DNA from: Rhizodiscina lignyota
Lineage: Eukaryota
Direction of reading: 5' to 3'
Assembly (NCBI GenBank): GCA_010015805.1
Contig: ML978122.1
Location: 2,762,453 to 2,826,452 of the forward strand
Length of the DNA: 64,000 nt
A program made the position numbers and the translations under genes. Every line of letters starts with the position of its first letter. The stretch's first letter is position 1. This document shows, piece by piece, positions 23,320-59,928 of the stretch. The notes beneath the pieces are model-generated. The model made no database searches, was not told the origin of the DNA, and worked only from the letters and a program-made list of their open reading frames with translations.

Positions 23320-26300
23320 CTATGCCTCCGCCATCACCTGCTCGCCTTCATCCAACATGTTCATAATCAGCGCTACCTTGCGCACCATCTCATTTGCCTG
23401 GCCAACGAGTAGAAGCTTCTCCGCATTCGATGGAAGACCAAGATATGTTGGAGGCTCGCGCTCAGGCAAATTCTTCACCCAATCCATAAACTCTCTCCAT
23501 CCAGTGCCCGCTGGCAGAGTGAGAACCTGGCTGTTTTCAGCCTGCGCTCCGGTAGGCTGGATGTCCTTGATGATATTGTAGTTCTCCTCGAATGCCGCAG
23601 GTGTCATGAAACCAGTAACCAGCTTGTTGAGGGTTTTGAAGTCACTCTCGTCATCAATCTTTCCGCCATACATCTCAGTCGTCAAAGTGCGAAGCATATC
23701 CCAGGGGATATTCTTCGGAGCAACGTTCGTTCTTCCGCCCGCAACAGATTCAACCCATGTATCAATGATGAAGCTGCAGCACTCGTACTATGAAACATTA
23801 GCATCTGTAGAATAACAAGCAGACTCAAAGAACTTACGTCGCTATCATTGAACTCCCAGAAACCCTTCCATCCGAGCGTTGGAGCATAACGTAGTCTCTC
23901 TTGAATGACCGCATGAAGGAAGCATAACAAGAGGTAGATACGGCCGCGTTCGACAGGCTGCTTGGTTGCTCTTGCAGAGAGAGATGATAGAGAGTCCTTC
24001 ATGTTTGCCCTGATTCCAGCGGGCTGCTCGTACATCAAGACTCGAGATGCTCGAAGTAGGTTGACAGGGATCTTGGGATTCGTCTCCATTGACAAGAACA
24101 AGCGGAAGTCCGGATGTGGTTTGAGCGAGTCGATACGTTTCTCAAGACTCTGAAGCCACTGCGGAGCCAGATGTACGTTCTTGACAATGACCCAGGAGCC
24201 AGTTTGGGCTGCATTACTCACAGCTTTGTCTGCGCTGGCCAGGCCTTCATTCGAACCCATGGCAATGGCTGCACAAGTAGCATGCATCCTTTCGACGAGG
24301 TTATCGACTTTGTAGCTCGCGTCGAAACCTGGACTAGAGCTTAACGCGATCGGAACACCCGCGGATACTTGCTTCACGACATCCTCTAGGTCTCCAGTAA
24401 CATCAAGAATGCCATCTCCAAATACAGAAGTGACGAATCGCTCTGCAGCTGGGACCATGCGATCGACGCGGAAGATCCTGATAAGAATGAGGGAGAGTAG
24501 ACCTTGGTCGAGTGGGCTAGTATCTTCAGGCCATACTTGTGGCACATATTTCTCTGCAAATTCTTGAGTCGAGAACTCGTTCCAGGCTGAAGTTGGGATG
24601 TCGGCGATATGCTCCTTGAAGAGGCGATGCTTCGAAGCTCGCTCCATGACCTCATCAGATCGATGTGGGTGAGTTGAAACATCCACCCCTACGATATCCT
24701 CATCGAGAACAGCATCGATCAGCTGCTTGTCCATCTTGTATGGTGCAGCCTGTGCAAGAAGCATAGCAAAGACGACACGATCTCTCTGTAAGAGAGACAA
24801 CGATGTCCGACGGTAACTGACGGAAAAGAGGTTCTTGAGAATAAAGTCGATCCTCGCGTTGTGGCTTGTTTCTGCGGATCGCCTGGCTTCTCTAAGAACG
24901 TACTCGAAAATGTCGACAAAGAACTGCAGCGAGAATTGATAGAAGTGGTTAATGTGGTGAAGTTGTTCCAGAACAGCAAAAATCGCTGAGCAGGATCGAG
25001 CGATAACGGAGTATTGTTGGGTGACGTTGTCGACCTCTTGCATGACACCTTGTGTCTCTGCTGCCTTAGCATTGATCTCTGCAGCTTCCTTCTTCAGCGT
25101 CTCGAGAGTTTCCATAACGCGGTCATCGTCAAGAATGTTTCCGCGTGATTCGTTAAGAGCCTGAAGCAAGCGCTTCTCGAGATGCCGCAGACGAAGACTG
25201 AATTCACCTTGCATCTTAATCAGGTTGGATCGGCGCTCATCGACATCGGGACGCTCGGACTTGAGTACTTCGTTGAGTGATTGAGTCTGAAGACTGCTCT
25301 GGGTGACTGTGAAGTTGACGAACGTTGTTCGAGAGCATATGTCAGGAGCGAAAGTAGCCGACGGATCGCGAGTAGACAGGAAAAGCTTGAACGATGGCGA
25401 AAAGTCGATCTCTTGTTTGCCAAGCTGGATGAGAACACGACCACCTGTCTTCTGGTACTCCTTGTTAAGGACATGCGTGAGGATAGGATCCAGGTGTTCA
25501 GCATCTTGGATCAAGATTGGATTACCGAAACGCAAAGAGCTCTCCAGCTGCTTCACGAAAGAATCATCCAAGAAGCTAGTGACAGTGAGCCTGCGATCTT
25601 TACATTCATTCTGCAAGAACTCGGTGACACGGCCAGATGGATCGATGATAAGTGGGTATCGGTTGAAGCGCTTGAGGATGATCGCATTCTCAGTGCAGAG
25701 ATCATCGACTGGAAGTGAGTTCTCTTGCCACTTGAGACGTTCGTCTGCTGTCGAAAGGTACTCCGTTACTGGGTTGATTGGCTTGTACTGAATGTTGGAC
25801 AGTGACATATGGTGAAGCCAGTCTTCGGTCATTGCTTTTCTGTATTGCTGATCGTAGAAGCCTCCATATGCAATGAAAGCTGCTGCAACAAGGACGTCGC
25901 CAACAATCGTATCGATTTGAGTCGAAAAGGATCGGCTACTCTCTTCCCAACGTGCGCGCTCGGATGACAAACTGTCAAGGAGCCTCATGCTACGGTCGAC
26001 CTTCGACTGAACGCTGCTCATCTCCGATTTGATGGCCTGAGTTTCGCTGATGAGCGCAGCATATTCGGTCTTGTAAGTAGCAATGCTCTTTTCCAGATTC
26101 TTAATTGTTTCGTCGATGGCCTGCGCCTCTGCCTTGGTCTGTAAAGCCGCTTCTTCAAGCTCTTGAACTTCTTCCCTGAGCGGGCCGACTCTGTCGAGAA
26201 TCTCCGAGTAGGTGACCTGAGCCTCCACCCACTGCACAAGCGGACCGCAGGCTTTGCTGGCCCTGTTAACACGCTCAAACGAGAAGTCGTCCTTGGACAA

Positions 26301-29300
26301 GAATTCATTCCGCATCCTGATACGATGGTTCCTGGTCATCTGTCGCTCATTGTCATAGTTGACGATGCTTGCAATGAAGTCATCCTTTCTTACGATAGCC
26401 TGAATATCCTTCCAATTTGCCACCTTGTGACCAAGAAGAGTGCAAACAGATTCCAATGCTAGCTTAACACCAGACGGAGGATTCTGCATTGATCTGACTT
26501 CAGTAAGATGTTGACGCTTGATATTGCTGACACTCTTCTTTGCCTCTGCGACTGCGGGTTCGGCGTTTGCAAGATCGTTGAGCACAACTTCACGACGGGT
26601 CTCAACTTCCTGCTCCTGCTTTTCGAGCGCAGCTTGGATCTCAAGGGAAGCCGACTTCCGTTGCTCAGCTTCGCGCTGATCAGCAATCATACGTTGCAGC
26701 TTCTCGTTTGCCTCTGCATCCTTCTTCTCGAGTTGACCCTGCTTTGCCGCGAGGCTCTTGCGAAGATCGCTGACTTTGTCCACAGTCTCTCGTAACTTGT
26801 CGAGACCGACGTTGAGATGCCGTTGCTGCTCTTCAAGGTCTTCTCGCTTCTCGTGGTATAGCTTGACGTACTGCGCAACAAAATCAAGGAAGTGGCGAGG
26901 AGTAAGGTATGTGATCTTATTCTGCTGCTTCTGAAGGCGAACGCTGAGTTTCTGCAGTGAATAATGGACATAGACCATAGCATTAACAACTGCATCGCGA
27001 TGGTTGAGTGGTAGGCTGAGCTCGCGATAGACCAACTGTACGCTGTCCGGCGCAGAATAAGATGGCCGATCAAGATCGACGCTCTGTGTAAGCTCAGAAC
27101 CAACCTGGAATAGAGCTTGGTCGGACCAGTCTCCAAACCAGTTGAGGACGCAACGATTGAACAGGGCAGGGCTAGTCGCAGCTTTTGAAGAGAGACCTTC
27201 CTCTGGCGGGTTCATAGTGAAAACAACGTGAAGGTTCTTGACGATTTGCTGTGTAAACCACTTGTAAAGCTCTTCTTGGGAGTCCAGAAGAAGGCCCTGT
27301 CGCTGAGCTCCTTCGCGGCAAGCAGTCATGAGAGTTGCATATTCGTCGCCTTCAAAAAGACCCGGTACTTCAGCATTGGCGAGAAGCGTGTTCATGCGCT
27401 CCAGGAAACCCGAATCAAGGACATTGGACTCGTCCATGATGAAGCAGACCTTCTCACCCTTACAGCCGCAGCGTCGAAGTACATTTCGCAGATCCTCATC
27501 GAAGTCCTCAGCGGAGTATTTGCCGTGGACTTTGATCTGGAAGACCGTAAGGCCATTCATCCAAGCTACGAAACGGGACAATGTCGTCTTGCCACTGCCA
27601 CTGACACCGATCAGGATCAGATGGCCTTGCGGTTGCCGGAAGACACGATCGATGCGGAGAACGTGTTCTAGCACGTCGTTGAACAGGATGAGTGGCACGT
27701 CGAGCTCTTCTTCGCAGAAAGTCTTGAGACGAGCTTTGACGAAGTCGCGGAGTTGCTCCCTCTCCACAGGTACGTAATTCTTCGATAGCCAGTTGGAAAA
27801 CAGTATTGGACCTCCCAAGGCCTTATCTTCATCAATGGTAGGGAAGTGCTCGAGAGCAATCCGCTGCACGCTGTCTTGCGTCCAATTTCGCTCATCCTCG
27901 TCAATGAGACGATCCTGGAAGAGTCGAAGGGCCTCGTGCGCCCAAATGCGGACTAGGCCTTCCAGCGTGAGACTCTCAAGTGGCTTGATAGCCTCATACA
28001 AGCCCCGAACCCACCTAGTCAACTCACGAGGCGAGTAGACATAGTGTGGTTGGATATCCGGTGTGAAGCGCTTCTGCGACTCGGAGTACAACTGCACCAT
28101 GGCCTTCGTAAGAGGCTCGGCATAGCCACGCAAAGCTGGGATGATCTTCAGCACGGCGTTGTTGAACGTGCCGTAGATCTGGTGAAGTGACAATTCGCCC
28201 GGATAGTCGACCATCACGAGAGGCGCATGACGAAGGAATCGGAAGCCCATAGGTGTACGTCCAGCATCTGTAGGAGGGTTGCAAGCGCCGACGAACTGTA
28301 TGCGGTCAAGAGTAACCCAGGTCTTGTCGCTTGTCCTCCAGAAGCCATTCTGTTCAATGAGCTGACGCAAGAATGAAATTGCTCGCTGAGTGCCATAGTG
28401 ATCTGGAGCAGGCAGGTTGATTTCGTCGCAGAAGATGACTAGCCAGCGTCCAATTTGCGACGGTGTGAGCATAACACCATTCAGTGTCTTCTTGTACTCG
28501 CAGTATTGCTCGAAAGTCTTGATCAGTAGATCTGGAGTTGTTGCGCTTGAGAAATTCAAGCCTACGACCTCCATGTTGGGAAGTTTTCGCAGCGCACTGA
28601 ACAATGTCATGGTTTTACCGGAACCTGGAGGACCACAGAGAATGAGTGGTTTGTGCTCTGCGAGCCATGAGTAAAGGATGTCCTCGTGCCGAACGGTGTC
28701 AAGTGTCGGTATGACCACGTCCGTCTGAGTTACTGAATGTGTGTTGACCTCAATAGAAGGCACTTGAGATTGCCACATCGTCCAATCTGCAGTTGGGAGA
28801 GAGACATCAAAGTCAATGAGCGAAGTGCCCTGGCCGAGTGGAGGTACATCAACTGTCGTGAGACCTGCTATGTGATCCCCAAAGAGTTTTCTCTCTGATA
28901 GTGGGCAGTCGCCAGTGAAAGACCAAGTCATCGCTAGAAGCAGCTTCTTCGAGAGGTATGCATCGATCTGTTCAACCTCAAGTGGGAAATCCGGGTGCTG
29001 AATATTGTACTCAAGCAACGAGCGGCAGGCCTTATTAAGCAGCGAGAAGAGAGTCTTCAGTGCACGAATATCGCTATACTCCATAATGTGGCGGAGAGGA
29101 CGGGCTTCAGTGAGAGCCTTATGGACAAGCTGCTCGCTCTGTAGATGGGCTTGGAGGAAATCGGCGGCCTGGCCTTGAACAGTGAGCAGCTTCTGAGGTA
29201 ACTGGCCAGGCGGTACTGTCTCGTCCTCTACATCTTCGAATGGCAGCTGGCGAAGGGCAGAAAGGTAGTTCTCGACCATCATGTCTGTTGTAACCGTATC

Positions 29301-32300
29301 ATCGCTGAACCAAACCATACCACAACGACTGACTGTAGCAAGAGTAGCGTATTTGAGGGTCTCGACTTCGAACATGATGCGAACATTCGCAGGCAGATTG
29401 AGGCGCTCTCCATTCGGCAAGGTGAGCAGCTTGTTATCATCAAGAACACTGTTCAAGTTCTCAACCCATTCGGGATCAACGTCACCATCGAAGACGATCC
29501 AGTGTCTCTTTGTGTCTTCACCACGGAGGTTGTCGACGATCTTTCGCAGGATGCTCGTGAATAAACCGTCTGTCCACTCACGCGTCGTGCTGTCGAGACT
29601 ACCGTACAGGTGCTCTTTGCTCATGACCTTAGGATCGATAACGTGGCAAACACCTTCGACGCCTTCCACCTTCTGCAGCGCCTGGAGGAGAATCCTCCAC
29701 GCACTGGACTTGCCAGAGCCTGAGGAGCCCACCATCATGACACCATGATGTAGGCATTGAATCTGGTAGAGTTGGATGACCTTGGCCATCCAGGAATCGC
29801 TGACCACGAATCGAGATGCAGCAGCAACCTCGCGGATTGCCTTCTTGAGCTCTTCAAGTGGAGCAGGTACGTACTCGACACCAGGGAAGGACTCTGCCTC
29901 GATTGTCTCCATGACTTCAGCATCCTGCCGGATCAACTTGGGTCCCATGGTTTCGCGTAAACTTTGCACAATGATCTGTGGCTCCAGAATGTCGTCATGA
30001 AGGCTCTGATCTCCCTTTGTCGACAGTCTTGCGCGCTTCAGTCCTCCCGAACTAACAAGCACGCTCTTCAGGGCACGTAATCCGAAGTCGTAATGTGCCT
30101 GCTTTGACAAGCTCGCAGCGCATTTATCGAAGAACGGTACGGTTTGCTTGCTGAGCTCCTTTGCCCTTGAGAAGCCCTGTGAGAACAGCATAACTTCTGC
30201 GATAAGTTCCTTGTCGGGCTTGGACATGGCAACACTTCGGAATAGCTTCTTCAAGTTGTCTGGAAGATTAGAACGCCCAGCGTAGCCCGGATTCATGGTG
30301 ACAAAGATTCCAGTATTGTTGTGAACGTGCAAGCTACGACCAACGAGGTCGATTTGAACCTTCTCATCGACTACACCGCGACGCAGACCAAGCTGGATAT
30401 TTTGTATCTGCTGAGACACTGCGGACAAAATGCGCTCTTCGAGACGGTTGAATTCGTCAAAGCAACCCCAAGCGCCGACTTGGCAGATACCAAGGAAGAT
30501 CCGTCCCATGGCTTGGAAGTCAAAGGTATCGTCGCAGCAGAACACTAATGTGAAGCGACCAAGCTGAACACCAAGTGCTTTGACTGACTCTGTCTTACCA
30601 GTACCAGCAGGTCCATATGGCGATCCACCCAGCCTCTGGCAAAGGGCTTGAGTGAGAGTGAGGAAGCATCGGTCTGTGAGCGGTGTTCGAACGAGGCGCT
30701 CCGCCACACCAAGATACTCAAACCCGTAGGGAATGATTGCGTTCGCCATTTTAACCTTCAGCCGATCGAGCAACTCTCCTTCGTTCGCGTACACGTAGCG
30801 CATCTGGAGTTGCCACATGTAGTAGTTGGGTGAGTCGGCGTTTGCAGCTTTCAGCTTGCCAATTACATCGCGTTGATGGACGAATTCGGTGATGAGATGC
30901 TCTGACTTTCGCCTCTGTAATGGTTCCAAGTTTCCAAGTACAGACGAAGCCAGCAACCGAAGCAACTCGACGTGGCGATCATAAAGTGCTCCCAGGGATG
31001 CACCACCTTCTCGAAGCGACTCCTCGACAGATGCAGTCCAACAGCACTGGGTAGCCAGGACGACGATCTGAGCCGGGAAAGCAGACATGTAAGCTTCGAA
31101 AGCCGCTGCATCAAGGGTGTCAGCTTCGACAATTGCCTTGAATTGTTCCGATGCGTCCACCAAGAGTTCGGCAAGAGTGACCTTCATGCTGTGTTCAAGT
31201 GCACCGAGCCACTCATTGACCTTGGGGGTCTTGATGAGAGAAACTTCGCGCTTCATCATAACCTCTTCCCCTTCCTTCGAAACGAAGCCGATAATAGTCG
31301 TGTCTTCAGTCGTGATGAGACCGGCGAGGCCGGCGAACATTTTGCGAAGGTGTTTCGCGACGCGCCCAGTGTCATTGCTGTTGCCAATGATCTCCAGCAA
31401 GTCCTCGTCGCCGACAAAGTAGAAGCGTGGGAAAGATACGCGCTCACGCTCAAGGTATTCTCCCAATGCTTTTTGGATCTTGTTGAGTAGCTCTGCCAAT
31501 CGCTCGAGAGACTTCTGCACTCCTGCAATGCTGAGAACCTCCATGACGAATGGCTGCTTCGCGACCTTCCGCATGACTGAAAGGAACTCATTGTCGATGT
31601 TCTGGAAACGCGAAGATTCCAGCGGGAGCAAATGTTTGATATCAGCATTGCCGGTGAAGACGCCCTCAAGGTAGACCCATTGCCTCTGCACATCTATCCA
31701 AACATCGAACAAGACGTGGACGCGGTTGAGCTTCTCTTCCCAGAGCGACGCATCCTCCTCAAATTCTTTGTAGTAGGGGGAATGTCGCATAGCTTGGAGA
31801 GAGTTCAAGTTCTCGGAGCATTTTGCGAACAAGTCGTCCCAGCCGCGAATCAATCGGCATTTGTTGTGATAATTGACCAGGTCCAGGGAGTAGTTCTGCC
31901 AAGTCTCTTTCACTTGCCGAATGAACTCTTCCAATGCCATCTCACCTTGCGCTTGAGCAATGACATCTCGGATAATGACTTCGTTTGCGCTGAGATTGAG
32001 ATCCCAGACATCGCCAAGCGTCATCGAGAGTTGAGAATAACGCTTTGACGGTTTGAGGGTTTTAAAGATGCGGTTCCAGTGTCTTTCCCTTACAGCCTCA
32101 GATCTCATATCTGCAAGTAGCGGGTTCATCTTCAGTAGCTGGCGCAGCTGGTTCTGTACATGCTCGAATGCCGCGTACTGTCGCATTCGGCTAGGCATCT
32201 CCTTGGTCATTTTAATGAGGTTGTCAAGAGACTGGCGCAACTTGCGTGGCTGAATGCTATTCCACAGAGACTCCCGGAGTTCATTGATGCTGTTCCAGAT

Positions 32301-35300
32301 TGTCCCAAGGGCTGCCCAGACGGACTGGAAGTCTTGTACTTCCTCCAGTAGAGTTGAAAGTGCCGTTTCTGGGCTGGCAGGAAGATCCAAGGCTTCTTTC
32401 GCTTTCGCTACCATCTCAGATTCTGACTGGAGCTGCGTGAGCTTGCTGCTAAAAGATTGGAGAGTCAACGAAGCCTGCTCGTGTGGAATAAGGCCGGAGA
32501 CGGGTTTCTCCTCATTCCATTGCGTACTGATCTCTGTGATCTTTTGGTGAACGAGCTTGTCTTCTGCAACAATCTTTGCACGGAGTGCATCAGTCTGGTC
32601 CTGAACGATCTTTGCCTTGCGCTCAAGGATATCGTTCAAAATAGCCCACTCGTGATCAATCTGGTCGACATGCAGCCAGTCCGCAGGGAATTGATGGCGT
32701 TGTCGTTGAAGCATCGTCTGGCCCTGACGAAACACCTCGACTTCTGGTGTCCAAGCTTTGACCTTCCGCTTCGATTGTTGGACGACAGTAATGAATGCAA
32801 CCGCGTGACCGGTAGTTGAAGCCTCCAGTGACTGGCTCTCCAAATCTTTGCGGGCCTTCTCGATATCTGCGTGGACTTCGACCATACGGGTCCCAAGCTT
32901 CCCCGCAAATCGAACCAATATATCGTGTTGCCATTGGTCGTACTTCGCATTAACCTTCATCTGCACTTGCTCGTAGTCCACGTTTACGTGACCAAATGAT
33001 CTGCTGACTTCAGAGGTGTCAAAAGTTGACCGGCTCTTCCTGATCTCTTGCAGAAGCTGGAGCCATTGCCCTAGGTCGTCTCCAAGGGCGTCGTATACTT
33101 GCTCTGCGCGGAGATCCCAAAGAGATTGAAACTGTAACCACTTCGCAATGTATTCGTTTACATGGCCCAGACGCTCCTCGATGGCGTCGTAGACTCGGGA
33201 CAAGGCTTCCATGCAGCGCACTGGAAGTTCGATATATAGAGACTCGGCCAAAACCTCTGAGTCCTGCACACGATGCTCATATCTTGTAGCCTTGACTGTC
33301 TGTAGGTTGCAGACGATGCCAATCCAAGAATGAAGCTGTTCTAACCATGCAGCTCTCGCGTACTCTAGAGGCGGCTCCAAGAAGATGACTTGGTTGCGCA
33401 TTGAGATTTCCAGTACCAGTTGATTTAGTTTTGGCACGTTGCGCTGCATCGGATCTAGATCTTGGTCGGCGTCCCTACTCCTTGGTCTGTCAAATGATGT
33501 CTCATTACTGGTAAAGACTTCAATCCAGTCGTCGATAGCGCGCTGAAGTCTTGCGGTAAGGATATCCTCGATCTTGCCATTCAGCTCAGAAACCCAATAA
33601 GACAAGTTGACATAGTTCTGGAGGTGAAGCTGATCGACAGAGTTTTGGATTGAGTCGAGCGTTCTCTGGAAGGCTTCCTCGGTGTACGGGCAGGTCTCTA
33701 ATTCCGCCAAGCAATTCTGAATGGTAGAATGCAAAGTGGTAAGAGTCGTAGACTTCTTTTGCAGCTCCTCGACGGCGTGGGCAAACTCTCGCACAAACTG
33801 AACGTGCTTGCTCTCGCCTCGCACTCCACTCGTGTCTCCAGGTGCAAGCGTACCGTGCCGAATATGCAGGTCGTAAGCGTGTACAAAAGACTCCCATCTC
33901 AAATACACGCCTTTGGCGATCAAGGCCCGGACATCATTTCCGTACCCGCTTAAGAGAATGGTAACATCTCCTAGTTCCGTGACGGAGCGTTGCGTCTGAG
34001 CGTAGGTACGAATGCTTTCCATCATACTAACAGCGTACGGGTACACGCGTTTAGCTTCCTTGGAAACATTGTTGATAGCATGTGGGACCTGATAATTTAG
34101 CCACAGCAGATTCCGCACTTCCTTGAAGAGCACGATGATCTGGGGGTCAAAATTAACATTGATCTCAAGCACATTGCCGGCTGCGCGGTTGCGTGTTATC
34201 GTGAAGAGGCGCCCTGATATCGAGAGGTTACGTCGCGCGACGTTCTGATACCAGGACTCGAAAATGGGCCGCGTTTCGAGCTTCTTTCGGAACATGCTGC
34301 TCTCGTTTTGCAACTTCTGTCCCTCTGCGTGGAGGGCCCAGTTCTCGCCAAGAATGTCCTCGACTTTCTTCATGTACGCGTCCAGTTGTCGCTCGATTTG
34401 TCTGGCCCAAATGATTGCGCCAGAAACTGGAGGGATATCTCTAAGGCTTGCCATGGCATGCGCTTCCGATTTACCGTACTGCTGCTTGAACCGCTCATGC
34501 AACTGAAGGATATCATCCTTGACATTGTCGATCAATTGCGTCTGGTACTCGGATATTGCGCTTCGGATCTTGGGTCGCACAAACAGCGCGTTGAACTTGG
34601 AGAAGACTCGGAACATCTCATTGGCGTTCTTCGCTATCGCAAGTCGGTCTCTCAGCCTGGCTATGATCGAATTCTCGACTCGCGCAGTCCGCTCATTGTA
34701 AAGCTCTTCGGCATGCGCCCAGATTTGTGTGCCTTCTGGGGACACGTCCAGGACGTCCACATCTTTAAGCGCAGCATAGGCCTGCGAAACTTCTTCCACA
34801 GCATCAACATCACCAATTTCTTCAACGATGACCGGGCCAGTTCCATTAGCCAATTCTGCAGTGTCCTTTGGTCCTGTTGTTGGGCCTAACACGTTGACAA
34901 TCGTTCGCTGCAGCTGCTCGTGGTTATGCCTGAAGTTGTTGATATATTTTAGGCGATCCTGTGTCTTGATGTGCCTTGCCGTAATGCGGATTGGGATAAA
35001 TCTATCATTTCGCTTCCTCGTAACTTCGCGGGCTACATTGGTGAACTCCTTAACATTGTAATCCCACGCCATCCAGATCTCATCAGCGCTCTTCATGAGT
35101 GTCTGAAACTCGGGGAATTCCAAGTGCATCAAAGATCTGCCGCGCATGAGAGTATGCAGTCTGTCGTCAAGATCGCCAGAGATTGCTTCCACAAGAGGTA
35201 ACGCCCGCTGTACTGGATATGGACTTATGCGCAGCTTCTTGTTCATGTGCACAAAGATTTGGTCGATCGATTCCTTCACCTTCTGCAGAGATGTTGCCGA

Positions 35301-36480
35301 CAACAACTCATCTAGAGGGAACTCGCGCATGAGTTGGTTATAGCGCTGCACAAGATCCATCTTCTCTTTCAGTCCGGTATCCGTGCTAAAGCTGATTGCC
35401 GTACCAAATCGTTTCGCATTCTTCAATACCTCGAGCGTGAGAAGGACGCCACCACTACGCAGCTGACTCTCAATAGAGTCTAGTCTCGCTTCCATGGCCA
35501 ACCAAAAGTTGATCTCTTGTGAGGCAGTTCCTTGCGTTGGGTCCCTCGACGTGTCTGTTATCGTGCGTATCGCCTTGATCCACCCATTGACAGAGGTCTG
35601 TAACTGATTATGGAAGGCCGGATCGTCCGTTAAGGTCTTTGGCTTGATCATGTCGATCGTCAGCTGTTGGCCTTTTGGCTCGGCCTCCTCCACAGCTTCT
35701 TGGATGACCGGATGAAGTGGGAGAGACAAGGCAGGGATCTCGACATTTTGCTGCAGCTGCAAGAGATTCAGTTCCAGCTCTGCAATCTTGCGCTTCGTGC
35801 CAGGTATGCCAGTCCGTGCATCGCTGTCTGCCTTGCTCCAAGTCCGGTTCAGCACGTCGTTGTTCTTTGTCAGGGCCTCAAAGTATGGTCCCAGAGCGTA
35901 GTGAAGATACGTATGCACCACCCCTGATGCAGCAGCGGACGAGCCTTGATTTGCGGCTGCGGCATCTTGACTTGATATACCTGGTAGGTATATGACCTGG
36001 ACTTGTGATGTAATCGGAATTTGAGGGTCTAGTGGCTGCGCATTTGGTTTGAGAATGGCAATGGTAGCAACGCAGGTCGGCGAATTCGAGAGGTCTGAAG
36101 AGAGTGTATAGGTGAAGCGTTGAGAAGGTACTGGTAATCTTTGTCAGTATATAAATTTTGATTGCTTGGGAGATATTAAACTAACATGCTGTACCGTTTG
36201 CGCCGTTGGTGTGTAGTGGCTCGGCCTCAACGTCTTTTCGAACATACAGTGCTGCAGCCTGCGGCTCTGAAGCAAATCGCGAACAACGTTGCAGAGTTTC
36301 TGGCAACTCTGATTGCGACAGAAAGCTCGGATATGCTTCCAAGTCAGACTTTGGAGCTCCTAAGGTGACGGTGATGAGATTCGAGAGATGGTCCACCAAC
36401 ACTTGGGGGTCGAATGTTGGTGGACTGGCAGCGTTGGCGATGCCGTTGGCCCCTGGCGGAGCGACCAGAGGGCCTTCCAT
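23320..36480 (-). CDS. DYN1: Cytoplasmic dynein heavy chain (NudA/Ro-1/Dyn1)
   Basis: Over 4,300 codons in 3 exons (introns ~36185-36132 and ~23837-23788). Four P-loops [24 protein letters not shown] and [16 protein letters not shown]; stalk coiled coil; [17 protein letters not shown]. Confidence 0.99.
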
Positions 36481-38431: not shown

Positions 38432-39349
38432 ATGGTCAGCGCCGCAGACTTTAAGGGTCTCCTCAAGCCCGTCGTCGAAAAGCCCAAGAACCAATCCAGA
38501 AACACAGAACACATTTTGGGCCCACTTGACAGCGGACTTGCAGCTATTCTTCGCGACCAACTCTCTCTATCCTCCTGGCTTGCACTTGGCGCCATAGTCC
38601 AGGGTCTTCTCTTCCTCGTTCTGGGTCGTGTCGCTCTGATCCTCCCCATCACACTTGTCGGCTGGCGAGTACTCGATGCATTTCTCCAAGCGCAAGGACT
38701 AAAGCCGAATCCGCATATGGAGGGCGTCATCAAGAACAAATTCTCGGCACAGTTCCCATCTGAAGACGGTCAATACGGCAACAAGCCTGCCAATGGCGAA
38801 GTCTGTGTGCTCCTACTCGGCTTCAAGAGCAACCATCCAATGCAAATGCTCGCGCCGGGCTTCAAAGAAACAGGCGACCATTTCAACAACATGATGGTCG
38901 AGTTGCAAGCACACAAAGAGGAGAACGGCCTGCTGGGCACTACGAGCTGGATCGGTCTTGGGGAGCGGACGACAGCAAACGAAGTCATGACCACTTTCTA
39001 CTTCCGCTCCCTCGAGGACGTCCACAACTTTGCGAATGGAAAGGTCCATCGCGATGGCTGGAACTGGTGGAACAAGAATGTCCACAAGCACCCACATCTT
39101 ACCATCTGGCACGAAGTCTTCCGAGCCACTAGCGGCAACTGGGAGTCCATCTACGTCAACTCACCTCCAACCAGCCTTAGCGCGACAGCATTCAAGGGTA
39201 TTTCTGAAGAGACCGGCGAAGAAGTTTGGCATAGTCCCATTGTTGATGCCAGGAAAGGTCTGCTGAAGACCAGCGCCGGAAGAATGTCGCGTTCTCAAGG
39301 TGATGAACACGACAAGTACAACGATGATCCGTACGGTAACTACGCTTAG
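38432..39349 (+). CDS. DUF4188 / Af470(FmaE)-like dimeric alpha-beta-barrel monooxygenase with a hydrophobic N-terminus
   Basis: Intronless 305 aa. Motifs VLLLGFKSNHP, YFRSLEDVHNFA..HRDGWNWW and IWHEVF....WESIYVN recognised from the family. Confidence 0.75.
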   Translation: MVSAADFKGLLKPVVEKPKNQSRNTEHILGPLDSGLAAILRDQLSLSSWLALGAIVQGLLFLVLGRVALILPITLVGWRVLDAFLQAQGLKPNPHMEGVIKNKFSAQFPSEDGQYGNKPANGEVCVLLLGFKSNHPMQMLAPGFKETGDHFNNMMVELQAHKEENGLLGTTSWIGLGERTTANEVMTTFYFRSLEDVHNFANGKVHRDGWNWWNKNVHKHPHLTIWHEVFRATSGNWESIYVNSPPTSLSATAFKGISEETGEEVWHSPIVDARKGLLKTSAGRMSRSQGDEHDKYNDDPYGNYA

Positions 39350-39764: not shown

Positions 39765-40565
39765 CTAGATAGTACGGCTCCATATGCCTGGAATGTTTTT
39801 CGTCTCCCAGGGGCCCTGCATTTCGTTAGTTCTCCATTTGCGGCGTGATGATGAGAAATACGGACGTAAATCGGAGTGCCGAGACGGTTAAGCACAAAGA
39901 CGATCTGATGCAGTGCGTCAGCAATAGAGAGATTCTTGCTGTGCCTGGTGAACTCACGTCGGTCACGGTAACTGTCTTGCGGCCCTGGTGGCCGACAATA
40001 ATGCAAGCTTGAGACAGAATCTAAAAAGATCTGTTAGCAGAATGTTACACGTAGCATAAATGCAACCGACCTGTTCGAGGCGCTTCTTGACCACACAACG
40101 AACTTCGTCATAGATAGTAGCGGAAATGCGCTTGATTCCGCCGCGGCGAGCTAGGCGACTATTTGGAGTAAGACATAGGCAGTCAACCCTTGGTGCAATC
40201 GCAAATATCGCTTAAACAAGCTAATGATAAGGCTGGACTCGGAGGAAGTTATGTTTCACTTCGCGCGTACCGAATATCGTTCTTCTGCGTATCATATTGG
40301 TACGGTTATCACCCTTTTTCGGTAAGAATAGAACGTACTGTGATGCCGCGAATGTTGTCACGCAAGATTTTCCTTTTCGTAATGTTCGTCAGCCCGTGCC
40401 CTGAAGCAAAAACACTATGCATGTAAGGCTGGTGTTGATGTTTCGGCCTCACCTGTGTCTTTTGAGGGTCTTGCCGCCCTTGCCTTTTCCTGCACCTAGC
40501 CCTAAACTGGACTTTCCACCACCCATTGGCAGCCCAGAGCGTGCTGTTGTGGATGGCTTCACCAT
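39765..40565 (-). CDS. Divergent histone H4 variant (H4E/hH4v-type), 133 aa, 7 exons
   Basis: Exons 40565-40453, 40372-40339, 40284-40271, 40158-40071, 40020-39958, 39904-39866 and 39815-39765 total 402 nt in frame, with six GT-AG introns. They encode [32 protein letters not shown]...[23 protein letters not shown]. Confidence 0.9.
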
Positions 40566-40752: not shown

Positions 40753-40770
40753 TCAGGGTTAGGGTTAGGG
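40753..40770 (+). repeat. Short interstitial telomere-like tract / telobox (TCAGGG TTAGGG TTAGGG)
   Basis: Read directly; ~190 nt upstream of the H4-variant ATG. Confidence 0.6.
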
Positions 40771-55669: not shown

Positions 55670-58600
55670 ATGCCGCCCTCTCAGGAGCCCGGCCCTTCTG
55701 CAGAGGATGACATCCATTCTCAAGCTCCCGACGTCAATATGGGTGGCAATGATAACGAGCACGATCACTCGCTCATCGTTGATTCACACACTGATGTCCA
55801 GATGACGAATGCTGAAGGTGGCGACTTGCCGCGCAGCATGGCGAATTCAAACTTGCAGGACAACCCGACCGACAATGGCATTGTTCCAGAGAGTGGTGAA
55901 ACAGCCGAAAAGAGCAGTGCTCCTTTGAGCACGATGGGAAACTCTGATGATACAGCAATCAATGTCGAGACCTTCATCAAGTCTGAACCAGCCGAACCCG
56001 ATAGACGTGTCTTCGACTTCACTCCATTCATCATGTACCCCAACACCATTGACACACCGATTGTACTTGACGAGGACGACGATGTTCCAATGGCCGAAAC
56101 TGCAGCACCGCAGGAGAGCTCCTCCACAGAAGTCATTCCTAATGCTGAGCCAGACACCAACGTCGAACCGCATGTCTTCAACCTTGGCAAGTCAATCCTT
56201 CGACCTTCTAGCAAGCCCAAAGAGGGCGCATCCAAAGATGACACGCCTAAGGATGATATGCGCAGCAAACTCAGGGAAGCTCAGCGCATGATGGCCAAGA
56301 AGCTCGAAGCTAAGCGGGCTGCTGAGGCCCAAAAGGCTACAAGCGCATTGAACGACACCGAAGAAGACATGGGAAATGGCATGAATGAGGCAGAAGTGGA
56401 CCATAAACGACTCTGCAAACTGTGGAAGAAGAAGGAGAAAGCCTACAAAAAGAAGGAAGAGAAGGGCTTGACGACCTTTGATGAGGAGATTGATTTCATG
56501 AAGGCCCAGAAGGAGGAGAATACTCGAGTCCGTCGCTTCGAAGAAGATCGTGAGAGAGCAGACGAAGAGCGCCAAAATCAGTCTCGCGAGAGTTCGGATG
56601 ACGAGATATTTGTCGGTCCTTCCAGAGTGGCCGGAGTCAGACGCTCCTTTAACGCTACGATTGCTTCTGATGACGATAATGACGGCTATGTCGATAATGA
56701 AGACGACGTCCTTGAACGCAAGCGGCAGCGTGTGCAGGAGCAACTCCGGAAACCAACCAGAATCCCGCGACTTGTGGAAGCAGAAGCTCTGTCAGCTTTG
56801 CTAGACGACGAACGCGGTGAGCCAGCGGAGTCTTCAAAGAAGGGTAAGAAGAACACATCACCGAGAAAGAGCAAGGCGAAAGGCAACGATGATCCGGATC
56901 CTTCAAATGCCAAGAGCAACTCCAAGAAAAACGCATCTACCACTGCAGCGAAGGGCAAGAAGAAGCAGGGCCGTACGCAGAAAGACAAGCCGGACAATCC
57001 GCAAAGCAATCCGCTTGGAAATGTCGAGTCTCTGCTGACCTCGAACATCTTCCGCGACGCCGAAGGCAATGAGAATCTTGAAGCCCAGCCTACTTTCACA
57101 TCGGGTACCAGGGACAAGGCGCTGAGAGAGTTGCTCGCCGGCCTGTCGAAAGAGGAGCGCAAGACCGCAAACGTGGACAAAGCATACTTGCAGGCTGCTT
57201 GCAAAGACTTCGTCGGTCAGCGTTCTGTCATGGCGATTGGCCATGACAAGAATCCCGACGGAGAGACAGGCTGGCAGGTCAGAGGAATGACATGTGTCCT
57301 CAAACATTACCAACTGCTTGGTGCCGCCTTTATGAGGCGCCGAGAGCGTGGTGACGACCAACCACCTGGGGGATTGTGCGCGGACCAGATGGGCTTGGGA
57401 AGTGAGTTTACCAGTATTATACACATTCTCGATTTTCAGCATGGCTAACTCCTACACAGAGACGATAATGATGCTCGCCAACATAGTCAATGGCCGTGTC
57501 CCACCCAAGAGCAAGGAGCCCAGAACTACTCTAATCGTAGCTACTCCAGCACTCATCAACCAGTGGGGCGAGGAGATTGCCAGACACTGCAACATGAAGG
57601 GCTTTGAGGTAAGTAATATCTTGTCCAGCACATTGAGTCTGTTGAAATTTCACTAAGTCATTTAATAGGTTATTAAATATTGCGCTGGACACAAGATCAA
57701 CAGTACGAACATAACGACGATCCTCGAAACGTTTGACATCGTTCTTACCACCTATTACGAGGTGATGAGAAGCTGGCCAAAAGTTGAATACCCGGCACAC
57801 ATCATGACTGCGGAAGCCAAGGCGGAGTATAAGCGCGAGTATATCATGGAAAACAAAGGCCCTCTGCACCAGATCCACTTCCAGCGCATAGTGCTTGATG
57901 AGGCGCAAGCAATTAAGAACCGGCAGTCTCGAACCTTCCTCGCCTGTAAAGGACTTATGGCCAAGCATCGGTGGGTCATCAGCGGTACGCCTCTGCAGAA
58001 CTCCGTGGAGGAGATCTATCCGTACTTCAAGTTCCTGCGCGTACCCCACTCAGGCAGCTATCGGGTCTTTAAGCAGAACTTCCTCGGAGACGACGATCCG
58101 GACAAGCAGGCACGTCTGCAGCAATTTCTGAGCAAGGTGCTCCTTCGGCGCACGCACACCGACCGTCTGTTCGGCCGCCCACTTGTCAAGTTGCCGGCAG
58201 CCTCTAACAAAATCCATTGGATCAAGTTCAACGACCTGGAGCGAAATGTCTATGAAATTGTCAGACGACGTATGATTCAGCGGATCAACACATATTCGAA
58301 GAATGATGAGCTGGAGAAGAAGTATCACAATGTGTTGGTGATGCTGCTGAGGCTGAGACAGTTGACTGGACACATCATCTCTATTGAGGAAGTGTTGCGC
58401 GATTTACTTGGTAAGTTATCCTAAGCTACAAATATGAGATAATCATGCTAACCTGCTCCACTCATTTAAATAGAGTTCGAGGACCATGAGCGCCTCAAAG
58501 AGCTGGCTGAGGAATACGTAAACCCGAACACGGCCAAAGACCATAGAGAACAGATCGAGCACCTGCGCCACGTGCTTAAAAAGCAGGATATGATAGAGCA

Positions 58601-59928
58601 GCGCAAGAAGGAAGGCGAAATTCCGGATCCCGATGAAGAGGAACCTTCCCGAGGCGAGCCAAGTGGAACTGCTACGCCCGGCACTCGAGCAGATTCGGTG
58701 TTCACACGCGGTACGAGTGTGTTCGGAGGTCAGCGAATCAGCACTGGACATACGCATGGCCTTACGTACGATTTCACCAAGTACCTGGCAACGCTTCGAT
58801 ATGGCGATACATGGGAGAGACTCAAGACTCGCCAGTCATGCGCTATATGCGATCAACCCCCGGTGACGCCGTGGATCACATCATGCTTTCACATCATGTG
58901 CGCGGATTGCCTCGAAATCCTTCAAACATCGGCAGCGGAGAGGGACATGTCACACGCACGCTGCCCGGACTGTGGCGATATGTTCTACATGGCGAGCCCT
59001 CTTACGGACTGGAGCTTCGACCTTCCGGACGGTGAGGAAGAGGATGGACCGAAGAAAAAGAAGAAGAGAGGTAAGAAAGATGACGGAGGCGAGAAAGGCG
59101 TACCTAGCTGGCTCAATATGCCGAACCAATACCTCCTACCGAGTTCAAAGACAGTTGCAATCAAGGTAAGTTTCCGCGAGAACTGCGACTTAGCGATATA
59201 CAGCTAACTGACTTCTATCTAGGCGCAGATTCTGAACTGGCTTGAAGAGGATCCCGGCACCAAGGTGATTGTCTACTCCCAATTTCTCAGTATGATCCGC
59301 ATCCTCTCTCGTGTATGCATGCAGGAGAAGTGGGGCTACCAGGAGGTAAAATATCATCAACGCTCAACACTAAGGTGTAAATTAGCTGACCAGCTCCAGT
59401 ACCATGGTGAAATGACCATTACAGAGCGTGAAGCTGCAATCAAGAATTTCAAGGAAGAAGATGGAACCAAGGTCTTGATTGCCTCCTTGAGGGCAGGAGG
59501 AGTCGGTCTCAACCTCACGATGGCTAGCAAAGTCATCGTAGTCGATCCATGGTGGAATCTCGCTGTTGAAGAGCAAGCCTTTGCCCGAGTCTTCCGCATC
59601 GGCCAGAAATCTGAGACAGCGATGACACGCTTCGTAGTGGAGAACACCGTCGACGAAGCCATGACGAACATGCAGCGGCGCAAGAAGAATGATATTGACG
59701 AGGTCATGGAGGATGGATCTGGCGGTCGCCGCAAGTAAGTAACGCCCGTTCGAGTATTGTTGGGAGCACATTCTGACATAGAATAGGTTGAGTACAAAGG
59801 AGCTCCTGTCGCTGTTCGGGCCCGTACGTGAGGATGATAACGGTAAGCCGTTTGTGCTTGTTGAAGACAAGGAGCTGGAGCCGGACTTTGATCCCGACGA
59901 TGACGAGGAAGACGGTGACGACGAGTGA
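55670..59928 (+). CDS. SNF2-family helicase with an inserted RING finger (Rad5/Rad16/Uls1 group)
   Basis: GGLCADQMGLG-KT across an intron, TLIVATPAL, IVLDEAQAIKN, SGTPLQN, LLRLRQ, RING CAIC..SCFHIMCADC..CPDC, ASLRAGGVGLNL, DPWWN and QAFARVFRIGQ. Several GT-AG introns; long charged N-terminus. Confidence 0.92.

Follow-up and report, generated by a model that had tools for sequence, protein, structure and literature searches.

Variants of histone H4 are rare. In the Pezizomycotina, the H4E family, exemplified by hheA of Aspergillus nidulans, has been described as a third H4-like gene beside two canonical ones, lying between nudA and svf1 and characterized by longer tails and a retained basic patch (Flipphi et al. 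2024, PMC10878826). According to the accessible parts of that paper, A. nidulans H4E is nuclear, binds H3 and is up-regulated in nitrogen starvation; it cannot replace H4.1, and its deletion is without phenotype. For Neurospora crassa, the accessible parts of a preprint report that H4v is required to silence a perturbed tetO array, is present in MNase-resistant nucleosomes and in a complex with H3 and ASF1, occupies about 2,700 sites, is partly needed for DIM-2-dependent RIP and loses all of its chromatin signal without SAD-6/ATRX (Carlier et al., bioRxiv 10.64898/2026.08.11.744009), a role that supersedes the 'unknown function' given to the variant in the initial annotation of the present locus. 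Published work thus already covers the family with its intron pattern and its Dothideomycete divergence, and the preprint supplies a function; with the family newly linked to ATRX-driven genome surveillance, one more orthologue by itself adds little. Searches of the literature on H4E, hH4v and H4v found nothing on the gene described here, the sequence of which may be listed in the supplements of both family papers.

The window (the whole 64,000-nucleotide stretch of Rhizodiscina lignyota DNA under analysis) also carries an H4-like gene that is third to two canonical ones located elsewhere in the genome, and the best overall explanation, to which we give a probability of about 0.75, is that it encodes an H4E/H4v acting in ATRX-type silencing. 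The seven-exon H4 variant with a 14-nt micro-exon that had been proposed from the letters of the window is real: on the minus strand, from 40565 to 39765, 402 nt encode 133 amino acids followed by TAG (table 1). When the exons are joined by their window coordinates, the 133 codons contain no internal stop, and the product, compared by eye, is the 133-residue protein given earlier.

Table 1. The modelled exons of the H4E gene and neighbouring features, in window coordinates.
Feature	Coordinates	Strand	Description
Dynein heavy chain gene (nudA-type)	23682..36245	-	long ORF at 23682-35651; first ATG probably close to 36245
Exon 7	39765..39815	-	51 nt; G99, F100P, two-Trp C-tail, TAG
Exon 6	39866..39904	-	39 nt = 21 + 18, residues 86-98; Y88F, K91N; R92 and Y98 kept
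Exon 5	39958..40020	-	63 nt, residues 65-85; D68Q, V70C, Y72I, E74G
Exon 4	40071..40158	-	88 nt, residues 35-64; hallmark exon of the H4E family
Exon 3 (micro-exon)	40271..40284	-	14 nt, residues 31-35
Exon 2	40339..40372	-	34 nt, residues 19-30; 32 nt in L016 and L017
Exon 1	40453..40565	-	113 nt; carries the ATG, the lengthened Gly/Ser/Lys N-tail and the beginning of the basic patch
Telomere-type repeat	40755..40770	+	16 nt, 190 nt upstream of the H4E ATG

All six introns are of the GT..AG type, with lengths of 50-112 nt and phases 2, 0, 2, 0, 0 and 0, and a consensus branch motif is found within 30 nt of the acceptor in five of them, intron 2 being the one without. Homology with other H4E genes suggests that all six would be removed. 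Retention of intron 1, 2 or 3, or skipping of the micro-exon, would end the protein at 38-65 residues, the skip shifting the frame so that it stops at 65 amino acids. A tandem CAG-AAG acceptor precedes the micro-exon (40282-40287), and splicing to its second AG would remove K31 without changing the frame. The gene is 'hidden' because a Pfam search with exon 4 alone gave no match and scans of the genome for the CENP-T_C and Histone families did not pick it up; Pfam gave no match to the Aureobasidium protein P0033 either. An explicit gene model is useful, as gene callers often mis-splice such genes. Database models of H4E are often wrong: P0014 and P0158-P0164 start inside intron 1 or in mid-gene or enter the last intron, and P0030 fuses H4E with svf1.

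The gene is almost certainly the genome's single H4E/H4v, the identity that the initial annotation had proposed and that is borne out by intron positions, the phylogenetic tree, the nearby dynein gene and the fact that the genome has two canonical H4 genes besides. In canonical numbering, the introns fall within R19 (phase 2), after T30 (phase 0), within R35 (phase 2) and after residue 64, D85 and Y98 (all phase 0). The R19 and D85 introns recur at L016 and L017, those at R35 and 64 at L015, L016 and L017, and the last one at L015, and intron 2 is placed 2 nt downstream of the phase-1 site usual in the family and found in L016 and L017. As five of the six positions are the same in independent H4E loci and the sixth is off by 2 nt, the structure of the gene is not due to chance. 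It is the shift of intron 2 that reduces the usual 16-nt exon 3 to 14 nt (34 + 14 nt with phase 0, as opposed to 32 + 16 nt with phase 1 in the published pattern). Exon 4 has the same length in the window gene, L015, L016, L017 and the published model, and the phase-2 introns 1 and 3, the short exon 3, the 63-nt exon 5 and a Dothideomycete-type last intron, 18 nt past the usual site, are likewise those of the family in the accessible text of PMC10878826 (where a figure legend gives 60/18/21-nt exons and the text 63). Unlike the published genes, which have seven introns, the window gene lacks the one after R92, and its exon 6 fits the loss of this intron combined with the 18-nt Dothideomycete spacing described in that paper. 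On this ground the filamentous ascomycete that carries the gene is probably a Dothideomycete.

The two canonical H4 genes of the genome (L003 and L004), one of which adjoins H3, have identical products and introns at R3 and M49 (both phase 1), none of the six window introns being in common. Over residues 20-99, the window protein is 59% identical to them, sharing the histone fold, the K16-K20 patch, R45, R78-K79, R92 and Y98; N. crassa H4v (NCU04338) is 62% identical to canonical H4 in the accessible part of the preprint, and the core is ungapped in both. A reading as canonical H4 was rejected, as P32, A33, F61, D68, V70, Y72, E74, Y88 and K91 all differ, each being kept in 233-236 of 236 canonical-like sequences; this control was drawn from 263 sequences examined, obtained in two profile searches dominated by canonical or tandem H4s. 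CENP-T, CENP-S/Mhf1 and TAF6 were rejected too, since the 60 PDB matches listed for exon 4, out of 88, are all histone H4; on our reading of the results, these other H4-fold proteins are carried by the separate loci L001, L002 and L026. A search of the genome with an H4E query returned the window as the only close locus besides the two canonical H4s; two far weaker matches (E 0.003 and E 0.06, both with stops) contain no H4.

Xylariales and Aureobasidium account for most of the 46 proteins that a query with exon 4 returned. Metagenomes scanned for a motif yielded four loci, of which three are distinct over the gene (L018 is the same as L017) and none is a close relative. The alignment leaves out 25 of the 46 exon-4 matches (mis-spliced, partial, redundant or non-fungal) as well as P0160, a near-duplicate of P0159, and L018, and the tree also leaves out P0158, which is partial. 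In this tree (38 rows, 80 columns), the gene groups with H4E and not with canonical H4: the Aureobasidium H4Es and six further proteins join it in a clade of 17 rows (support 94/89), nested in an 18-row clade (86/90); no clade containing it reaches the starred support threshold of the tree. The Aureobasidium H4Es (P0024, P0033 and others, and locus L015) together with P0014 and P0158-P0164 are 62-74% identical to the window protein over residues 20-99 and have in common with it R61, I/V72, F88, N91, P96 (S in one) and the intron after Y98, Q68 being common to the window gene and the P0014 group. Aureobasidium has lost intron 2 and the P0014 group apparently introns 2-5, all of which are present in the window gene.

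The neighbourhood is that of the published family only in part. The dynein heavy chain gene begins about 3.5 kb downstream of H4E, so that the proximity to nudA is retained, but svf1 is not adjacent as it is in the accessible account of PMC10878826, the two lying on one contig but about 285 kb apart; for this reason, and because a monooxygenase-like gene comes before the dynein gene, synteny is only partial. That gene, af470-like (38432-39349), converges on H4E, the two stops being 416 nt apart, and seems to have been inserted into the nudA-H4E-svf1 block as published. Upstream of H4E lies a Lon protease gene. The neighbours of the window gene were found in the flanking sequence of none of the four metagenome loci; L016, however, adjoins svf1, which, with the fused svf1 + H4 annotation of P0030, ties the homologues to the published H4E locus. 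At 17 kb from H4E, a SNF2 gene with a RING finger (57765-59207) is distinct from the ATRX-like gene on contig C12.

Between the window gene and L015, rough estimates over 80 codons give dN of 0.255 and dS of 1.76, and the three codon positions are 72, 82 and 44% identical. With dN far below dS, the comparison indicates long-term constraint on the gene; the near-saturated dS would possibly be compatible with a recent decay or relaxation. RIP damage was rejected, as the gene has no RIP-like dinucleotide bias at the thresholds that we take to define one. It may be asked whether H4E has recently begun to decay, the gene being intact, selection relaxed and loading no longer efficient. The gene has a long end branch (0.51, where the median is 0.1), E74G and F100P are private, intron 2 is weak and, in the accessible text of PMC10878826, several lineages have lost H4E and laboratory strains can do without it, all of which would fit. 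Such a decay is nevertheless very unlikely given that the seven exons and twelve splice sites are intact without a stop, that RIP-like bias is absent and dN far below dS, that an ATRX-like gene is still present and that strongly divergent Dothideomycete H4Es are already on record in the same paper.

The tails and basic patch are as first described: compared with the genome's canonical H4, K16-K20 is unchanged, the N-tail has 18 additional residues ahead of K16, 15 residues follow G99, the modelled exon 7 codes for two Trp, and two Cys are gained (G56C and V70C). C70 is common to 9 of 10 Aureobasidium-type sequences, and C56 is private to the window gene. K16 is accompanied by five Lys in the N-tail before it, many H4Es being Lys-poor by the accessible account of PMC10878826. 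The extensions, of 18 and 13 residues, are shorter than the 25 and 35 of N. crassa H4v in the accessible part of the preprint. At L015 (5817-5871), a GT is missing from the usual intron-1 donor, and an in-frame read-through adds 18 residues inside the basic patch; a similar insert is present in P0017 and P0020, and the read-through of L015 might reflect an allelic variant or a fault in the assembly.

In descriptions of the H4-H2B interface, as far as they are accessible, Y72 and Y88 of H4 stack with Y83 and L80 of H2B (bioRxiv 10.1101/2024.12.31.630874), K91 bridges to E71 of H2B, and D68 and R92 bond to H2B (PMC8025322). The window protein has I72, F88, N91 and Q68 at these positions. The remodelled H2B interface that had been proposed holds insofar as Y72I, Y88F and K91N are real with respect to the genome's canonical H4 and fall at described contacts; it needs to be qualified in that the changes are clade-wide, Y88F conservatively keeps the aromatic ring, and H75, D85, R92 and Y98 are kept, as are R78 and K79 in exon 5. 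Indeed, I/V72, F88 and N91 occur in 17 of the 17 nearest H4Es and Q68 in all seven of the P0014 group, so that the changes at 72, 88 and 91 are, at the level of sequence comparison, a clade trait and not private. A weaker H4-H2B bundle is a plausible consequence, and the loss of D68, Y72 and K91 would loosen the hold on H2A-H2B in the nearest H4E clade. The H4-H2B face is not discussed in the accessible text of PMC10878826 or of bioRxiv 10.64898/2026.08.11.744009.

These residues also raise the question of whether the H4E of this clade has changed its job, forming unstable, H2A-H2B-poor hexasomes or tetrasomes or acting outside SAD-6 silencing. In favour of such a change are the contrast with the 16 Xylariales-type H4Es, all of which retain Y72 and K/R91, the near invariance of the described contact residues in the canonical-like sequences (Y72 and D68 in 236 of 236, K91 in 235 and Y88 in 233), and the genome's one H2B, which looks canonical at the residues facing H4, these being placed by an H2B numbering that we assume. 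It is, however, an unlikely change, since H75, R92, D85 and Y98 are unchanged and Y88F is a conservative replacement, since Neurospora H4v, with 62% identity, still makes MNase-resistant nucleosomes (bioRxiv 10.64898/2026.08.11.744009, accessible part), and since looser nucleosomes would be compatible with a role in ATRX-type silencing too.

The C-terminus sets the window gene apart. F100P is the reading obtained beyond G99 when the sequence is taken without the gap that MAFFT placed there, and both it and E74G are private, E/D74 being found in 35 of 35 other H4Es and F100 in all 28 with a usable C-terminus. The Sordariomycete H4Es compared, among which the N. crassa sequence does not figure, keep Y72, K/R91 and F100; Aureobasidium and the P0014 group keep E74, and Aureobasidium keeps F100 but alters H75. 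Neither F100P nor the Trp tail is a feature of the published H4E in the accessible text of PMC10878826, and no homologue resembles the exon 7 tail, the homologues ending in G-F-D. Together with a donor, GTCCGT, that is atypical and has another GT 4 nt further on, this makes it conceivable that the model of exon 7 is wrong, in which case F100P and the Trp tail would be artefacts and the true C-terminus different. We regard this as quite unlikely: the donor codon is the same as in L015, all seven of the nearest proteins read on into the intron past Y98, and the acceptor used keeps G99 and has an ACTAAC branch motif 12 nt upstream, no other YAG in the 280 nt from the donor having such a motif. 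Alternative donors and acceptors of the last intron were rejected; none of 25 AG sites tested restores G-F.

F100 is not among the H2B contacts in the accessible descriptions of the interface (PMC8025322 and bioRxiv 10.1101/2024.12.31.630874); it inserts into a pocket of ASF1 and contributes nearly a third of the H4-ASF1 buried area (PMC13638128, accessible part). Its loss, in a protein that also carries E74G, could weaken the ASF1 step, and it is a guess that the Trp following P100 fills the pocket. More tentatively still than the silencing role itself, and on balance doubtful, it may be proposed that the clade of Aureobasidium-like H4Es and relatives fixed the loss of Y72 and K91, and that the window gene, having also lost D68, E74 and F100, forms unstable nucleosomes that shed H2A-H2B, with an altered ASF1 handover. 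If true, shedding nucleosomes would offer a structural reason for ATRX needing an H4 variant at disturbed chromatin. As a natural mutant at an H2B contact and at the ASF1 pocket, this H4E lends itself to testing which H4v surfaces the SAD-6 pathway needs.

The genome contains the partners that such a pathway would call for. Among 30 SNF2 loci (from 35 matches), the motif that we take to be of the ATRX type is present in one, L049 on contig C12, with an open frame of 2144 codons and ATRX as its best PDB match (1.6e-72, the second best being at 1.4e-55); its SNF2 subfamily was not settled by the ESM Atlas. An ASF1 gene was found, together with one H3, CenH3, H2A, one H2B and H2A.Z, and the histone search of the genome returned no co-evolving partner histone variant; one Pre-SET protein and three DNA-methylase genes, all of putative identity, are present as well. 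The N. crassa and window genomes have in common an H4 variant with N- and C-terminal extensions, an ATRX-type remodeller, ASF1 and no H3.3-like second H3, as far as the accessible part of the preprint goes. The presence of the ATRX-like and ASF1 genes makes the silencing role of Neurospora H4v, by analogy, likely for the window gene, in an ATRX/ASF1 pathway of the N. crassa kind. Gene structure, orthology, long-term constraint and the ATRX-like and ASF1 genes are established here; nucleosome incorporation, SAD-6 dependence and silencing come from other species and would apply to this H4E by orthology. Counting against the silencing role are the single preprint, on a Sordariomycete, from which the function is known and the absence of a phenotype on deletion in A. 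nidulans.

The SAD-6/ATRX-ASF1 mechanism, carried over by orthology, is probable, if somewhat less so than the overall explanation. Removal of the six introns would yield a low-abundance replacement H4, which would pair with the genome's one canonical H3 and be carried by ASF1; the ATRX-type remodeller SAD-6 would then deposit it in a minority of nucleosomes at nucleosome-poor or disturbed chromatin, such as repeats, telomeres, tRNA and rDNA loci and foreign DNA, where it would help to start H3K9me3 silencing while being unable to stand in for bulk H4.

Finally, the telomere-type repeat upstream of the gene, which was matched in 0 of 100 shuffles and was not found upstream of H4E in L015-L017, may possibly be a promoter element. 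Its 12-mer has 68 copies in the genome, of which 28 belong to two contig ends and the other 40 are internal, and, with 7 copies for the reversed control, the internal copies are enriched.
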